DNA of 64,000 nucleotides, from positions 3,552,001 to 3,616,000 of the forward strand of contig OZ252098.1 in the NCBI GenBank assembly GCA_965248355.1, read 5' to 3'. The translations under genes and the position numbers were made by a program. Below are positions 4,834-44,014 of this stretch, piece after piece. Origin of the DNA: Candidatus Latescibacterota bacterium (GTDB taxonomy: Bacteria > Latescibacterota > UBA2968 > UBA8231). The stretch's first letter is position 1, and every line of letters starts with the position of its first letter. The notes beneath the pieces are model-generated. The model was given only the letters and a program-made list of their open reading frames with translations, did not search any database and was not told the DNA's origin.

Positions 4834-5876
4834 CCCGGCAACTCGGACAGCGGCACCAGGGTGAAGCACAGGGCCAGAAGGATGAAGCACAGGATCCCTA
4901 TCATCCGCCGGCGCCTGTCGAGGGGGAGGCCGGGGTGGTACGGAGGCGGGTGCCGGCGGCCGACGAGGGCCAGCAGCAGGGCGATCAGCAGCCACCCGGG
5001 CCAGCCCCTGGGCAGGTCCCAGACGACCGACATCACTCCGTAGACGCCCATGGCCAGCAGGGTGGCGAAGCACAGCCGGCTCAGGCCGCGGTGACGGTCT
5101 CCGAGCAGGGCGTAGGCGATGTGTCCCCCGTCGAGCTGGCCCACGGGCAGCAGGTTGAAGGCGGTGATCACGAGGCCCACCCAGCCGGCGAAGGCGACCG
5201 GGCTGAGGAGGACGATCCGGTCGTCGCCGGCGGCCGGCAGCAGCCAGGCCGAGAGCCCCTCGAAGAGCAGCGGCGAGCCCAGCTGCAGAACGCCGGGGCG
5301 CAGATTCCCCGGCAGCTCGAGGAAGTAGCCGGGCTCCACGACCCGGGACATGGGCAGCCCCACGAGGCAGGCGGCGACGGCGACCACGAGACCCGCCAGG
5401 GGCCCGGAGGCGCCGATGTCGAGGAGGGCGCGCTTGTGCGGGATCGGCGAGCGGATTCGGATCACGGCGCCGAGCGTCCCCAGGGGAGACAGGTACGGCA
5501 GGGGGATGAAATAGGGCAGGGAGGCCTTCACGCCCCAGCGCCGGGCGGCGAAGTAGTGCCCGAACTCGTGCACGGTGAGAATGCCGAGGAGGGTTGCCGC
5601 GAAGGGCCAGCCCTCCACGAGGTGAACGAGCTGGTCGAGCTCCGTCAACGGATCGACACCCTGCTGCATGGCGCCGGCGACCATCATGGAGAACAAGGTC
5701 AGCAGGAACAGCAGCACGTGAGTGGAGGGCCGGTGAGAGGTCGGGGACGGTCGTCGCCTCTCCTCGGGCCAGACCGCACCGGCCCCATGGCCGGGGAAGT
5801 ACCGGGACGTTCCGTGCCAGTCCGGGGAGCGCTCCGGCCGGGGGGGCGGGGTCGGCTCCCTCCGCCACCACCTCAT
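4830..5876 (-). CDS. site-2 protease, peptidase M50 family
   Basis: HEFGH zinc motif, GPLAG, NLLPVGQLDGGH, multiple TM helices. Confidence 0.92.
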   Translation of the reverse strand: MRWWRREPTPPPRPERSPDWHGTSRYFPGHGAGAVWPEERRRPSPTSHRPSTHVLLFLLTLFSMMVAGAMQQGVDPLTELDQLVHLVEGWPFAATLLGILTVHEFGHYFAARRWGVKASLPYFIPLPYLSPLGTLGAVIRIRSPIPHKRALLDIGASGPLAGLVVAVAACLVGLPMSRVVEPGYFLELPGNLRPGVLQLGSPLLFEGLSAWLLPAAGDDRIVLLSPVAFAGWVGLVITAFNLLPVGQLDGGHIAYALLGDRHRGLSRLCFATLLAMGVYGVMSVVWDLPRGWPGWLLIALLLALVGRRHPPPYHPGLPLDRRRRMIGILCFILLALCFTLVPLSELPG

Positions 5877-33973: not shown

Positions 33974-34081
33974 GGCCGCATTTATGCCTCCGAAAGGGTT
34001 CCAGTGTCAATTTAGGCCATTTGTCCGGGTATGGATAGGCCTATACAAGCGCTTCAGGCCCGAATCCTGGCAGTCGTTTCG

Positions 34082-34110
34082 TTGACATTTTCTCCTCCCC
34101 GTTCTATAGT
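34082..34110 (+). promoter_or_regulatory. sigma70-like promoter of gltBD
   Basis: TTGACA(34082)-17 bp-TATAGT(34105). Confidence 0.75.
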
Positions 34111-34183
34111 TAGTCGCTCACTTGTGATTCGACGCGAGGTTCAGCGCCCTCCTCACCCCTGGGCGCCTCCCCAAAGGATCCCC

Positions 34184-38785
<4,602 letters not shown>

Positions 38786-38803: not shown

Positions 38804-40294
38804 ATGGCCAAACCCACCGGATTCATGGAGTTCGAGCGCGAGCTGCCCGCCGAGCGCGACCCCGTGGAGCGCCTGCAGGACTTCGACGAGTTCCACCGGC
38901 ACCTCAGCGACGAGCGCATGCGCGACCAGGGGGCCCGGTGCATGGACTGCGGGATCCCCTTCTGCCACACGGGGACCACCCTGCCGGAGGACTCGCCCTT
39001 CGCCTCGGGCTGTCCCATCAACAACCTGATCCCGGAGTGGAACGACCTCGTCTACCGGGGGATGTGGCAGGAGGCGCTCGAGCGCCTGCACAAGACCAAC
39101 AACTTCCCCGAGTTCACCGGGCGGGTCTGTCCGGCCCCTTGCGAGGGCTCGTGCGTGCTGGGGATCAACGAGCCGGCCGTGACGATCAAGAACATCGAGG
39201 TCTCCATCATCGACAAGGCCTGGGACGAGGGCTGGGTGGTGCCGGAGCCCCCGGACCGGCGCACGGGGAAGCGGGTGGCCGTCGTCGGCTCCGGTCCCGC
39301 GGGGCTCTGCTGCGCCATGCAGCTGAACCGCGCCGGCCACCGCGTGACCGTGTACGAGCGCTCCGACCGGGCCGGCGGCCTGCTGATGTACGGCATCCCC
39401 AACATGAAGCTGGACAAGCGCCTCGTGCAGCGCCGGGTCGACCAGATGGCCGCCGAGGGCGTGACCTTCGTGACCAACACCGAGGTCGGTGTCGACCTGG
39501 AGGTGCAACAGCTCGTGGACGCCTTCGACGCCGCGGTGCTGTGCACGGGGGCGCTGAAACCGCGCGACCTCGATGTGCCGGGCCGCGGGCTTCGGGGGGT
39601 GCATCAGGCCCTGGACTACCTGCACGTCAACACCAAGTCCCTCCTCGACTCGGGGCTCGAGGACGGGGACTACATCTCGGCGAAGGACAGGAACGTGATC
39701 GTCCTCGGGGGCGGCGACACCGGCACCGACTGCGTCGGCACGGCCCTGCGCCACGGGTGCCGGAGCCTCTTCCAGTTCGACATCATCCCGGCCCCGCCGG
39801 ACGAGCGCACCACCGGCAACCCCTGGCCGGAGTGGCCCAAGGTCTACAAACTCGACTACGGCCAGGAAGAGGCCGCCGCCCTGTACGGCGACGACCCCCG
39901 GGAGTACCTGCTGAGCACGGTGGAGTTCCTCGACGACGGCGGCGGCCACCTCCGCGGCCTGGTGACCCGCGCGGTGGAGTGGGTACCGGCCGGGGACGGT
40001 CCTCCCTTCCGGGAAGTGCCCGGCACCGAGAAGGAGTGGCCGGCGGAGCTGGTGCTGCTGTCCATGGGCTGGCTGGGTCCGCAGGATACCCTGCCCGACG
40101 CCCTGGCCCTGGTGCGGGACCGCCGCTCGAACGTCCAGGCGGAGGAGGGCAAGTACGCCACCAGCATCCCCGGCGTCTTCGCCGCCGGCGACGTGCGCCG
40201 CGGCATGAGCCTGGTGGTCTGGGCCTTCAAGGAGGGGCGCGAGGCCGCCCGCGAGTGCGACCGCTACCTGATGGGCACCACGAGCCTGCCCTGA
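38804..40294 (+). CDS. gltD: glutamate synthase small subunit
   Basis: [55 protein letters not shown]. Confidence 0.97.
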
Positions 40295-40312
40295 GGGCCT
40301 CTCCCAATTCTC

Positions 40313-40756
<444 letters not shown>

Positions 40757-40786
40757 GCCCCGCCCGGCCCCACGCGGGCCCGTTCC

Positions 40787-40861
40787 GTAACATGGTTCAC
40801 CGCAGGCCCCCCGGGATCCTCCCGTTGACGGTTTGGGATCCTCTGGTTAACATCGTTCACC
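40787..40861 (+). promoter_or_regulatory. promoter with two putative TetR operators
   Basis: TTGACG(40825)-17 bp-TAACAT(40848); near-identical boxes GTAACATGGTTCACC (40787-40801) and TTAACATCGTTCACC (40847-40861). Confidence 0.7.
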
Positions 40862-40862
40862 C

Positions 40863-42935
40863 ATGGACCGAACGGATATTCTCACCCGGGCCTGCGAGCT
40901 CTATCTGGAGGGCGGCGCCGAAGCCGTCTCCATGCGCCGGTTGGCCCGCGATCTCGGGGTCACCGCCCCGGCCCTCTACCGTCACTACGACAGCCGCGAG
41001 GAGATGCTCCTCGACGTCGTCGCCGAGGCCTACCGGCGGCTGAGCGAGCGGCTCTACGGCGCCCTCTCCGGCCGCACCCCCGCCGAGCGGCTCTACCTGG
41101 CCGGCCAGGCCTATCTCGATTTCGCCCTCGATCAGCCGAAGTACTATGAGATGCTCTACACGCCCGCCCACACCCTCGGGGCGGAAGAACTCCCCGATCA
41201 GGTGACGGAGCAGGTCGCCAGCGTCGGCCGGTTCTTCAACGACCGCGTGCGCGAGTGCATCGACGCCGGCCTCTTCCAGCCCCTCGACCCCGCCGACGTG
41301 TCCGGCACCCTGTGGGCCCACGCCCACGGCCTGATCTCCATCTACCTGCGCGGCTGTCTGGACATGGAGGCCGACGAGTTCCGCCGCCACTACGGGGCCT
41401 CGAGCCGGCGGGCGATCACCGGCATGGCCACCCCCGCCTACGAGGTTGAGATGGACCGCGCCATCGAGGACCTCTCCCGGGCGGAGGCCCGCCGGGAATC
41501 CGGGGGCAAGGGCCGCCTGCGCTCCCAGGCCGCGACCTGGCTGACCTGGGTGCTGACGGCTTTCGGCGGCGCCCCTGTGGCCGCGGAGACCACACCCGGC
41601 CAGGAGTTGGTCCTGAGCATCGACGAGGCCGTGAATCTGGCCCTGGACCGCGGCCGGGCGCTGACGGAGGCGCGCCTGCTCCTGACCGAGGCCGAGGAGC
41701 GGGTCTCCGAGGCCTGGGGAGAGGTCTTTCCGCGCCTCGACTTCTCCGCCAGCTACGTGCGCAACATCTCGCCGCCCGTCTCCTTCGTGCCGGCGAGAAT
41801 CTTCAATCCCGCGGCCCCGGAAGGTGAGTTCCTCTCCCTGGAGTTCGGGGCCGACAACAGCTGGCAGAGCGCCCTCACCTTGCGGCAGCCCCTGTTCGAC
41901 CCGAAGGCCCTGGTCGGCCTCGGTGCGGCCGAAAACTACCGGCGCCTCCAGCGGGAGATGGTCCGCGGCCACTCCCAGCAGGTGGCCACACGGGTGCGCC
42001 TCCTCTGCTACGACCTGCTGCTGCGCGGCGAGGAGGTGCGCCTCATCGAGCGCTCCCTGGATCGCCTGCGGCAGGCCCTCGAGGAGACGCGCGCGCGGGC
42101 CCGGGCGGGCCTGGCCTCCGACTACGACGTGCTGCGGCTCGAGGTCGAGCTGGCCACCCTCGAGCCGCGCCTGCTGCTCGCCGGCAACGCCAGGGCTTCG
42201 GGGCGCCGCCGGCTGGGTCTGGAGCTGGCCGTCGACGACCCCGGACGCCTGCGGTTGTCCGAGAGGGGAACCCTCACCACGGCCAGGCCCGGCCTCGAGC
42301 TTCCGGCCGGAGATCTCGTGCAGACGGCGCTGGCCCGCCGCTCCGACGTGCGCCAGCTCGAGCAGAACGCCGCGCTGCGCCGGAGACTCCTGCGGCGGGA
42401 GCAGGCGGAGTACCTGCCCAGGGTTTCCCTGTTCGCCACGTGGGACGTGCAGGCGCAGCAGGACGGAAGACCCGACTTCTTCGGCAGCGCCAACAACCGC
42501 GCCACCAGCAAGATCGCCGGCCTGTCCGTGGAGCTGCCCCTGTTCAGCGGCCTGCAGCGGGACGCCCGCATCGATCGGGAGCGGGCCGTCCTGCGCCAGG
42601 GCCAGGTGCGGGCGCAGATGGCGCGGGACGAGGCGGCGGTCCAGGTCCAGGACCTGAAGGAGGCCCTGGCCGAGGCCGCCCAGCGCGAGGGCGGCCAGCG
42701 CCTCGCCGTGTCCCAGGCGCGGCGGGGATTCGAGATCGCCAGCGCCCGCTACCGCGAGGGTCTCGGCAGCCGGCTCGATGTGACCGACGCCGAGGTCGCC
42801 CTGCGGCAGAGTGAGTTCAACATGGCCCAGGCGGCCCACGACCGGCTCGCCAGGCGGGCCCAGCTCGACCTCGCCATCGGCCGGGTGCCTCCCGTCGACG
42901 GCGAGGCCGCAACCGATTCGGAGGAGATGGAGTGA
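40863..42935 (+). CDS. TetR-family regulator fused in frame to a TolC-family outer-membrane efflux protein
   Basis: aa ~1-190: SMRRLARDLGVTAPALYRHY HTH and LWAHAHG (WHG-type) domain; aa ~220-241 signal-peptide-like; remainder has two OEP repeats (FPRLDFSASY, LRQPLFD, YLPRVSL, VELPLFSG, RYREGL...LDV.DAE). No stop between the domains. Confidence 0.88.
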   Translation: MDRTDILTRACELYLEGGAEAVSMRRLARDLGVTAPALYRHYDSREEMLLDVVAEAYRRLSERLYGALSGRTPAERLYLAGQAYLDFALDQPKYYEMLYTPAHTLGAEELPDQVTEQVASVGRFFNDRVRECIDAGLFQPLDPADVSGTLWAHAHGLISIYLRGCLDMEADEFRRHYGASSRRAITGMATPAYEVEMDRAIEDLSRAEARRESGGKGRLRSQAATWLTWVLTAFGGAPVAAETTPGQELVLSIDEAVNLALDRGRALTEARLLLTEAEERVSEAWGEVFPRLDFSASYVRNISPPVSFVPARIFNPAAPEGEFLSLEFGADNSWQSALTLRQPLFDPKALVGLGAAENYRRLQREMVRGHSQQVATRVRLLCYDLLLRGEEVRLIERSLDRLRQALEETRARARAGLASDYDVLRLEVELATLEPRLLLAGNARASGRRRLGLELAVDDPGRLRLSERGTLTTARPGLELPAGDLVQTALARRSDVRQLEQNAALRRRLLRREQAEYLPRVSLFATWDVQAQQDGRPDFFGSANNRATSKIAGLSVELPLFSGLQRDARIDRERAVLRQGQVRAQMARDEAAVQVQDLKEALAEAAQREGGQRLAVSQARRGFEIASARYREGLGSRLDVTDAEVALRQSEFNMAQAAHDRLARRAQLDLAIGRVPPVDGEAATDSEEME

Positions 42936-44014
42936 GCAAGCCCTTCCACCCAGCGCGCCTCATCCAGGGCGCCCCCCTCCTCGCAACCGCGGCTCTGTTC
43001 CTGGGCGGCTGCGGCGGCGAGTCCGAGGCCCTCGACGAGGCGCCGGCCGCCGACACGCACCGCATCATCAACGTCGAGGTCATGACCCTGACCCCGCGGA
43101 CCTTCACCGACAGGATCCGTCTCACCGGCACGGTCCGCGCCGACCGCGAGGTGACGGTGAGCACCGAGGAAGGCGGCACCGTGGCGGCGATCCTGGCCGA
43201 CAAGGGCGAGAGGGTGCGCCGTGGGCAGGCCCTGGTGCGGCTGGACGACGAGTTGCTGCGCGCCCAGCGCGACGAGGCCGAGGCCCAGGCGGCCCTGGCG
43301 GCGGATCTGTGGGGGCGCAAGAAGCGGCTTTTCGAAGAGGAACGCATCGGCACCGAGGGGGACTACCTCGAGGCCCGCTACACCGCCGAGCAGACCCGGG
43401 CCCGTCTCGACCTGATCCAAGCGCGGCTCCGGCGCACCGTCGTGCGGGCGCCCTTCGACGGCCTCCTCGACCAGCGCCTGCTGGAGGTCGGCTCGGTCAT
43501 CGCCCCGGGCCAGGCGGTGGGCCGCATCCTCGACCTGGAGCCGCTGAGGGTGACCACCGGCGTTCCCGAGCGCTACGCGGCCAAAGTGGCCCCCGGCGAC
43601 CAGGCGGTCGTCGCCTTCGCCGCCCTCGCGGACACCTGCGGGGCCACGGTGACCTACGTGGGGGCCGCCGTCGACGGCCGCCATCGCACCTTTCTCGTCG
43701 AGCTCGACCTCGAGCGTCCGGTGGCCGGGGCCAAGCCGGCCATGGTCGCCGAGGTGACCCTCGACCTCGAGGTCCATCCGCAGGCCATCATGGTGCCCCA
43801 CGAGGCCCTGGTGCGCACCGAGGAAGGCTTCACCGCCTTCGTCGCCGCCGGCGGAGAGGAGGGCCCCGTGGCCCGGGCGCGCCCGGTCACTCTCGGCGCC
43901 TCCGGCGGCGACCAGGTGGTGGCCACCTCCGGACTGGAGCCCGCGGACCGCCTCATCGTCGTCGGCCAGCAGCAGGTGGCGGACGGCGACCGCCTGCGCA
44001 TCGTCACCAGATGA
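42932..44014 (+). CDS. RND efflux periplasmic adaptor (membrane fusion protein)
   Basis: Lipobox FLGGC, G.V..ILADKGERV..GQ.LV.LD, VRAPFDG, GL..ADRLIVVGQ. Confidence 0.92.
   Translation: MSKPFHPARLIQGAPLLATAALFLGGCGGESEALDEAPAADTHRIINVEVMTLTPRTFTDRIRLTGTVRADREVTVSTEEGGTVAAILADKGERVRRGQALVRLDDELLRAQRDEAEAQAALAADLWGRKKRLFEEERIGTEGDYLEARYTAEQTRARLDLIQARLRRTVVRAPFDGLLDQRLLEVGSVIAPGQAVGRILDLEPLRVTTGVPERYAAKVAPGDQAVVAFAALADTCGATVTYVGAAVDGRHRTFLVELDLERPVAGAKPAMVAEVTLDLEVHPQAIMVPHEALVRTEEGFTAFVAAGGEEGPVARARPVTLGASGGDQVVATSGLEPADRLIVVGQQQVADGDRLRIVTR

Follow-up and report, generated by a model that had tools for sequence, protein, structure and literature searches.

We analyzed a 64,000-nt stretch of the genome of a Candidatus Latescibacterota bacterium (contig OZ252098.1, positions 3,552,001 to 3,616,000 of the forward strand; hereafter the window, numbered from its first letter), in which a TetR-family repressor and a TolC-type outer membrane factor share a single open reading frame (ORF) that is followed by the genes for an adaptor and an RND transporter. 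The frame opens with ATG (ATG1), encodes 690 residues and contains no stop before its own. Pfam domains were judged against the curated cut-offs, and all of those found in the protein lie above them: TetR_N at residues 6-51 (44.3 bits, cut-off 24), TetR_C_33 at residues 80-171 (49.6 bits, cut-off 26.8) and OEP in two stretches that extend to residue 673 (155.3 bits, cut-off 22). Between the TetR domains and the complete TolC/OEP part lie a 40-residue tail and, by inspection, a segment that resembles a signal peptide. The initial annotation, made from the letters alone, had described precisely this series of TetR, linker, signal-like segment and full TolC in one 690-residue frame, and both the translation and the Pfam matches bear it out; its placement of the signal-like segment, ending at Ala241 (nt 41583-41585), was also correct.

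The two halves have the features of their respective families. Sequence evidence gives the N-terminal half the helix-turn-helix domain, the all-helical C-terminal ligand/dimerisation domain and the palindromic operator of the TetR/AcrR family, and the solved chain nearest to it by sequence is 2oi8. The C-terminal half has the two tandem OEP repeats, the TolC fold and the adjoining adaptor and transporter genes of an outer membrane factor. An AlphaFold2 model built from a 74-row alignment (mean predicted local distance difference test score, pLDDT, 76.5) shows a helical TetR part at moderate confidence only, a low-confidence helix at residues 191-212 in the tail, a helix at residues 218-234 over the hydrophobic core of the signal-like segment and then a coil at residues 235-248. 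The TolC fold begins at residue 249, with pLDDT above 90 across most of residues 250-680. In Foldseek comparisons the TolC part matches E. coli TolC (1ek9; E 1.3e-18, target-normalised TM 0.77) as well as OprM, CusC and VceC, and the N-terminal part matches TetR chains weakly.

Table 1. Features of the fused tetR-tolC operon, with their positions in the window
Feature	Position	Strand	Basis and remarks
O1, putative upstream operator TAACATGGTTCACC	40788..40801	+	direct repeat of O2, 60 nt upstream of O2
sigma-70-like promoter, TTGACG-17 nt-TAACAT	40825..40853	+	promoter scan; -10 ends 9 nt 5' of ATG1
O2, putative operator, imperfect palindrome GTTAACATCGTTCAC	40846..40860	+	overlaps -10; ends 2 nt before ATG1
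fused tetR-tolC ORF	40863..42935	+	ORF translation, Pfam
TetR repressor core	40878..41375	+	Pfam TetR_N/TetR_C_33, dN/dS, PDB sequence match
TetR C-terminal tail/linker, residues 176-215, charged, with Met187 and Met197 (41451-41453)	41388..41507	+	AlphaFold2, comparison with split TetRs, dN/dS
signal-peptide-like segment, residues 216-241	41508..41585	+	inspection of 22 fused sequences, AlphaFold2
predicted mature TolC-type outer membrane factor, residues 242-690	41586..42932	+	Pfam (two OEP), AlphaFold2, Foldseek
periplasmic adaptor (membrane fusion protein), HlyD_D23/HlyD_3	42932..44014	+	Pfam; GTG start overlaps tolC stop (GTGA)
RND inner-membrane transporter, ACR_tran 674.9 bits	44011..47412	+	Pfam; ATG start overlaps adaptor stop (ATGA)

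Distribution of the fusion and selection on its halves

To place the fused gene we turned to a family set of 76 genomes, 16 of which matched the 690-residue query at E<=1e-60. An unbroken match over residues 1-690 is present in seven of the 76, spread over two genera: five of the ten genomes of genus g1 (G000, the genome of the window, with G002, G004, G006 and G007) and two of the three of genus g22 (G046 and G047). In the third g22 genome, G045, the fused gene lies in two pieces with a break near residue 345. These pieces cover residues 1-346 and 343-690 in different frames (L024 and L026) of what is a single-contig genome, and reflect either a real frameshift or a sequencing indel. Beyond the genome set, at least 16 protein clusters at 90% identity (P0001-P0016; 80-100% identical, 640-691 residues) carry TetR_N, TetR_C_33 and OEP together; the 104 others among the 120 matches listed are without TetR domains. 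The closest named homologues among these matches are labelled Gemmatimonadota/Gemmatimonadetes, Longimicrobiales or Latescibacterota, on which grounds the group can be described as Gemmatimonadota-like. The architecture thus recurs in six other species genomes and at least 16 protein clusters, with the signal-like features kept.

Assembled contigs from elsewhere also contain the junction. Among Logan DNA contigs, two from two other studies bridge it with 0 gaps (run X5, record 20, 40687-41577; run X6, record 26, 41405-41754), so that the junction does not depend on this one assembly, and no insertion or deletion inside the ORF is listed across four runs. A joint between 40719 and 42660 in X5/X6 was set aside as a chance or repeat match, its shorter side being just 20 letters. 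RNA-library contigs with 90-99% likeness come from relatives and possibly include DNA: record 7 of run X17 covers 40824-41489, and records 11 and 13-15 of run X18 hold pieces of TetR and TolC. These contigs are silent on starts and on translation.

Selection on the fused gene was estimated by pairwise Nei-Gojobori comparison of the seven intact genes, in which synonymous differences amount to about 0.2-0.26 per site in all regions. The ratio of nonsynonymous to synonymous change (dN/dS) is 0.12 for TetR (residues 1-175), 0.20 for the tail (residues 176-205), 0.52 for the variable linker (residues 206-221), 0.82 for the signal segment (residues 222-241) and 0.36 for TolC (residues 251-690). Both the TetR and the TolC halves are under purifying selection. 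As TetR is maintained and can be translated only within the 690-residue chain, the full-length precursor must be made.

These observations bear on the possibility that the two genes were brought together by an error of sequencing or assembly or by a recent inactivating mutation. The broken gene of G045 and a frameshift-like C-terminal part in P0016 speak in its favour. Against it stand the open frame kept in seven species genomes of two genera and in at least 16 protein clusters, the contigs of two other studies that cross the junction without a gap, and dN/dS values well under 1 in both halves. We give an artefact or pseudogene almost no credence, and consider that the sequence data refute it to the extent that such data can.

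Further TetR-OEP fusions were sought in two ways, both of which reach only TetRs related to that of the window. A word-based search with residues 1-225 among proteins of 379-1208 residues returned 21 proteins, of which 16 belong to this clade and none of the other five contains OEP. Similarly, phmmer with residues 1-259 against 1.84 billion representatives gave, among the best 150 matches, only one protein longer than 258 residues (P0006, of this clade). One protein on a 2.9-kb contig (P0121, 461 residues) has a TetR that is 47% identical to the window's and is fused to Amidohydro_3 (PF07969), which makes it a further long fusion within this TetR lineage. Within G000 itself, 16 OEP half-domain matches correspond to about eight outer membrane factor genes (eight loci). 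Four of the other genes were considered as fusions and rejected, the long frames around them (573-889 residues) being, by eye, Arg/Pro-rich read-through; these four begin, also by eye, with ordinary Met-initiated hydrophobic N-termini. A shallow literature search found no published description of a TetR-TolC fusion.

Origin and decay of the fusion

Six genomes of the family set (G001, G005, G008, G009 of genus g1, G014 and G091 of genus g6) carry tetR and tolC as separate, adjacent and co-directional genes, and the stop of tetR and the start of tolC share an ATGA in every one of them, a classic layout for translational coupling. The split TetRs already possess a C-terminal tail; in G014, 24 residues lead from the AY motif to the stop, and the overlapping ATGA closes the tail. 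The fusion likewise has 24 residues between AY and Lys216, which aligns with Met1 of split TolC. Codon 216 in the seven fused genomes is AAG in four and AGG in three, all one step from ATG, and only one fused-type protein, P0017, has Met at this position. From the alignment and the codons we infer that Lys/Arg216 was once the tolC start codon, which seems to have been given up in the fused genes. The DNA of fused and split junctions is too divergent to align, and the exact fusing mutation was not recovered.

A maximum-likelihood tree of the TolC part was computed from 26 rows, namely 15 loci and 11 chosen TolC-only proteins, with G045 left out. In this tree the seven fused genes form one clade (100/100), and TolC genes of G019 and G079 are its sister (99/94); both groups together receive 100/100, and the split genes are placed elsewhere, outside this group. 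G019 and G079 retain remnants of the TetR C-terminus, equivalent to residues 154-187, in frame with TolC, while residues 188-221 are deleted and the helix-turn-helix part is gone. The G019 TolC frame ends early, at about residue 537. On these sequence grounds G019 and G079 are decayed fusions. The two loci (L011 ~1240-2472 for G019, L023 ~1372-2895 for G079) share TTGACAC-GTTCAATCA just 5' of the TetR remnant, which suggests that a single ancestral deletion removed the operator together with the helix-turn-helix part. The G019 locus also has an ATG immediately behind this motif, and the frame that it opens passes through about 100 remnant residues before entering the TolC signal.

The ATGA overlap in six of six split loci, the single fused clade and its decayed sister pair outline a stepwise path, from ATGA-coupled genes through a fusion that would have occurred once to loss of the repressor part in some lineages. 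On this reconstructed path the fusion swapped translational coupling for covalent coupling. The initial annotation had presented 1:1 production of repressor and channel as a product of the fusion; the link between the two is real but less innovative than claimed, since the split relatives are already ATGA-coupled.

The operon and its putative operators

The adaptor and transporter genes follow tolC with 4-nt overlaps each, confirming the overlapping gene order that had been read from the sequence. The adaptor N-terminus (window 42932-43030), VSKPFHPARLIQGAPLLATAALFLGGCGG, is a lipoprotein-type signal with the lipobox LGGC.

The promoter listed in Table 1 is the sole promoter-like site in 40300-43200 (shuffled sequences gave a mean of 0.0), and TTGACA with a TAAC-type -10 is kept across 12 fused and split loci and two further split loci. 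A strict pattern, GTKAA-N5-TTMAC, lies 15-17 nt before ATG1 in 11 of the 12 loci, with one mismatch in the twelfth (L003); the two remaining split loci also carry the operator pattern, one of them (L010) with one mismatch. A similar upstream site was read by eye at equal distance in fused and split relatives. O1 and O2 are therefore putative TetR-type operators at the operon's own promoter. A second sequence like the 690-residue query was not found in G000 at E<=1e-20, which leaves the fused TetR as the sole copy of that repressor lineage there. The predicted autorepressor of the tripartite RND operon would be a 215-residue cytoplasmic extension placed before the putative signal peptide of its channel.

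In the window (40825-40862) and at L002-L010, L021, L022, L024 and L025, the operator ends 0-2 nt and the -10 element 7-9 nt before the start codon, and no Shine-Dalgarno sequence is present. With the -10 element and the operator ending so close to ATG1, the mRNA would have almost no leader and no Shine-Dalgarno sequence, which suggests that a leaderless design has been conserved in fused and split operons.

The gene directly upstream (40313-40756, +) encodes a 147-residue protein that ends in a SEC-C motif (Pfam), and is itself preceded by ORFs that by eye resemble the glutamate synthase large and small subunits (34031-38785 and 38804-40294, +). The end of a SEC-C gene also lies upstream of the fused gene in L002-L005, a SEC-C-like end lies upstream of the decayed G019 locus, and the end of a gene like the glutamate synthase small subunit lies directly upstream of the split G014 locus. 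Over the SEC-C motif (40684-40767) contig depth is about 800 in DNA runs X5/X6 and 17-60 in RNA-library runs X17/X18, with many loose contig ends on both sides; the motif is common to many organisms in those samples.

Fate of the precursor

The junction segment reads KGRLRSQAATWLTWVLTAFGGAPVAA followed by ETT, with a predicted cut after Ala241 (VAA/E). Inspection divides it into an n-region (KGRLRSQ), an h-region (AATWLTWVLTAF) and a c-region (GGAPVAA), such that residues 216-241 have the positive n-region, the h-region of about 10-15 residues and the small residues at -3 and -1 of a Sec signal. The usual N-terminal location is lacking, as 215 residues including a folded TetR domain precede the segment. 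We inspected 22 fused sequences (16 proteins and six locus translations, with 19 distinct junctions) for these features. In each of the 22, the 12 residues that precede the most hydrophobic window carry a net charge of +2 to +4, and the aligned position reads [A/V]-x-A and then E, D or Q; the features of the internal signal are thus conserved across genomes. The AlphaFold2 model places the predicted cut site in coil, with the h-region helix on one side and the high-confidence TolC fold on the other. A core of about 12 residues followed by GGAP and A-x-A suggests a cleavable signal rather than a stable anchor. In P0004, P0011, P0019 and P0020 (alignment A1, columns ~227-240) and in L011 and L023, the core contains a Cys whose surroundings, LLSC or LLAC and then G, resemble a lipobox; the window and some other members have no such Cys in the core. 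In part of the clade, lipid modification and cleavage by signal peptidase II might thus take the place of the signal peptidase I cut.

The proteases that such processing would call upon are encoded in G000, which has two Peptidase_S26 proteins (signal peptidase I), two Peptidase_M50 proteins (site-2 protease, S2P, type) and a tandem Peptidase_S49 (SppA type). One of the Peptidase_M50 matches falls inside the window (5082-5603, - strand; G000:C1:3557082-3557603), in a 716-residue open frame. Excerpts of two papers describe RseP as removing signal peptides from the membrane (PMC8144685, PMC10470546).

From these features we propose the following model. One promoter with two putative TetR-type operators would drive a near-leaderless mRNA, and translation from ATG1 can give only the 690-residue precursor of TetR, tail, signal and TolC. 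The buried signal would engage the Sec translocon while the N-terminus with TetR stays in the cytoplasm, and signal peptidase I would cleave after Ala241. TolC, from Glu242, would then move to the outer membrane and work with the adaptor and the RND transporter. The 241-residue TetR product would keep a short, weakly hydrophobic C-terminal tail and would leave the membrane either unaided or after S2P- or SppA-type proteases degrade the signal remnant; freed TetR would repress the operon at both operators. We lean slightly towards the central step, export of the full-length precursor from its internal signal with cleavage by signal peptidase I. A stronger version, in which TetR becomes free only after Sec engagement, the signal peptidase I cut and S2P/SppA-type release, would tie repression to export; we consider it fairly improbable. 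If true, repression would signal that the channel had been exported successfully, what remains of the TolC signal peptide would be the operon's transcription factor, and a constitutive form of regulated intramembrane proteolysis would be built into a structural gene.

The initial annotation had likewise proposed a polyprotein split by signal peptidase, with TetR tethered to the membrane until an intramembrane protease frees it; the conserved fusion, the selection on both halves, the retained signal features and the encoded proteases lend that proposal partial support. Several observations weigh against the model. The best 12-residue Kyte-Doolittle mean is 1.24-2.26 in the fused sequences versus 2.29-2.84 in the four split TolCs measured, and the signal segment, at the dN/dS given above, evolves almost neutrally. 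The fusion is confined to a narrow clade, and the two sister lineages G019 and G079 dropped the TetR part and kept TolC, which makes the fusion dispensable. Given the ancestral ATGA link and the two discarded TetR parts, the fusion may be a tolerated, nearly neutral event. Furthermore, all 12 fused rows of alignment A1 and all seven fused genomes have both Met187 and Met197, and GAGG lies 5 nt before the ATG of codon 197 in the five genomes inspected (in the window nt 41451-41453, preceded by GAGGTTGAG), so that TolC could be initiated separately. If most functional TolC were made from Met197 (or Met187), with a long charged n-region, the full-length chain would serve only as the source of TetR or be partly wasted, and the lost stop would be mechanistically meaningless. 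This account also draws on the CCTCC in the 16S tail of G000 and the enrichment of Shine-Dalgarno-like motifs before its gene starts (34% of 2513 first-start candidates have such a 4-mer), and on the decayed lineages, which must start TolC at a Met inherited from the TetR C-terminus. However, a Shine-Dalgarno-like 4-mer also precedes 15% of the 16046 internal in-frame ATGs of G000, so that GAGG is expected by chance about once in seven, and this GAGG follows automatically from the residues E-[V/A/G]-E. The initial annotation had named the in-frame GAGG-5 nt-ATG at 41451 as its alternative; the motif is indeed present, but against this background it says little about initiation. Met197 is moreover ancestral, occurring in the TetR tails of split G014 and G091, where TolC has its own ATG. 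Synonymous divergence over residues 176-205 is 0.234, not below the 0.205-0.215 found elsewhere, and thus gives no sign of a selected embedded initiation signal. The ancestral tolC start position is now K or R, and the promoter scan of 40300-43200 found no internal promoter-like site. Finally, ribosomes that start at ATG1 would still yield a 690-residue chain whose fate needs explanation. Initiation within the tail as the main source of TolC is in our judgement rather unlikely; an internal start could supplement TolC, and the full-length chain would still have to be dealt with.

A different fate for that chain would be to remain uncleaved, as a ToxR/CadC-like transmembrane regulator whose TolC-like periplasmic part is a sensor or docking domain and not a channel. 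Transmembrane transcription regulators have the same topology, a DNA-binding domain at the N-terminus, a single hydrophobic segment and a C-terminal domain in the periplasm, and can act while anchored, according to excerpts of PMC11856585. We nevertheless think this very improbable. The periplasmic part is a complete two-repeat outer membrane factor with a high-confidence TolC fold, under purifying selection, and its gene is coupled in an operon to those of an adaptor and an RND transporter. In the AlphaFold2 model the TolC fold starts only about 7 residues after the hydrophobic segment, and from this gap and the known geometry of TolC the uncleaved chain would be unable to place TolC in the outer membrane while anchored. 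Where ToxR/CadC-type proteins have a stable anchor and an attached periplasmic sensor, the fused protein has a core of only about 12 residues with GGAP behind it, as would fit a cleavable signal better than an anchor, an [A/V]-x-A site kept in 22 of 22 fused sequences, and a complete TolC.

The closest known arrangements are the split operons (G001, G005, G008, G009, G014 and G091), which share the order tetR, tolC, adaptor, RND, the TetR tail and the TTGACA promoter, with a GTTAAC-N3-GTTMAC operator that ends 0-2 nt before the tetR ATG. Their TolCs are 58-60% and their TetRs 59-70% identical to the query. They differ in that the tetR stop overlaps the tolC ATG and the TolC signal is of the ordinary N-terminal kind, its hydrophobic core being stronger, whereas in the fused operon the tetR stop and the tolC ATG are gone and the signal is internal. 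In TetR/AcrR-regulated tripartite RND pumps of the AcrR-AcrAB-TolC and MexR/NalC-MexAB-OprM type, the repressor is separate, soluble and usually divergently transcribed. Such pumps share with the present operon a local TetR-family repressor, an outer membrane factor, an adaptor and an RND transporter, and the TolC fold of the fused protein matches both 1ek9 and OprM. We know of no described pump system in which the repressor is covalently part of the channel precursor. A precedent for the layout is the FbcH cytochrome b/c1 precursor of Bradyrhizobium japonicum, which Thony-Meyer and co-workers, in about 1991, reportedly found to give two products once signal peptidase cleaves at an internal signal peptide. 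Like FbcH, the fused gene is one ORF with two functional modules, both under purifying selection, and with an internal signal and its putative peptidase site between them. The products of FbcH are both membrane- or periplasm-facing respiratory subunits, whereas here they would be a cytoplasmic DNA-binding repressor and an outer-membrane protein.

Membrane-bound regulators such as ToxR, TcpP, CadC and RseA (with its protease RseP) have, in the excerpts of PMC11856585 and PMC8144685, the same layout of a cytoplasmic N-terminal domain, one hydrophobic segment and a periplasmic C-terminal part. By analogy with RseA and RseP, a first cut on the periplasmic side could be followed by release of the cytoplasmic part through an S2P protease (excerpts of PMC8144685). 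ToxR, TcpP, CadC and RseA keep a sensor domain and are cut upon signals; here the first cut would be constitutive processing by signal peptidase and the periplasmic part a pump component. The parts are thus ordinary members of the TetR and outer membrane factor families in an ordinary RND operon; the unusual feature is that they are covalently joined across a buried signal.

Should the fusion be merely a tolerated accident, it would still mark the limits of what the export machinery accepts. The clade, with its apparent passage from ATGA coupling through fusion to loss of the repressor, is also relevant to the origin and the decay of gene fusions. Under the processing that we propose, a single bacterial translation product would yield both a DNA-binding regulator in the cytoplasm and a protein of the outer membrane, the former attached to the signal peptide as an extension, and Sec signals would be shown to work in nature behind a folded domain of 215 residues. 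The operon would then offer a simple natural system for following the fate of signal-peptide remnants, and would hint at a way of tying gene regulation to export.

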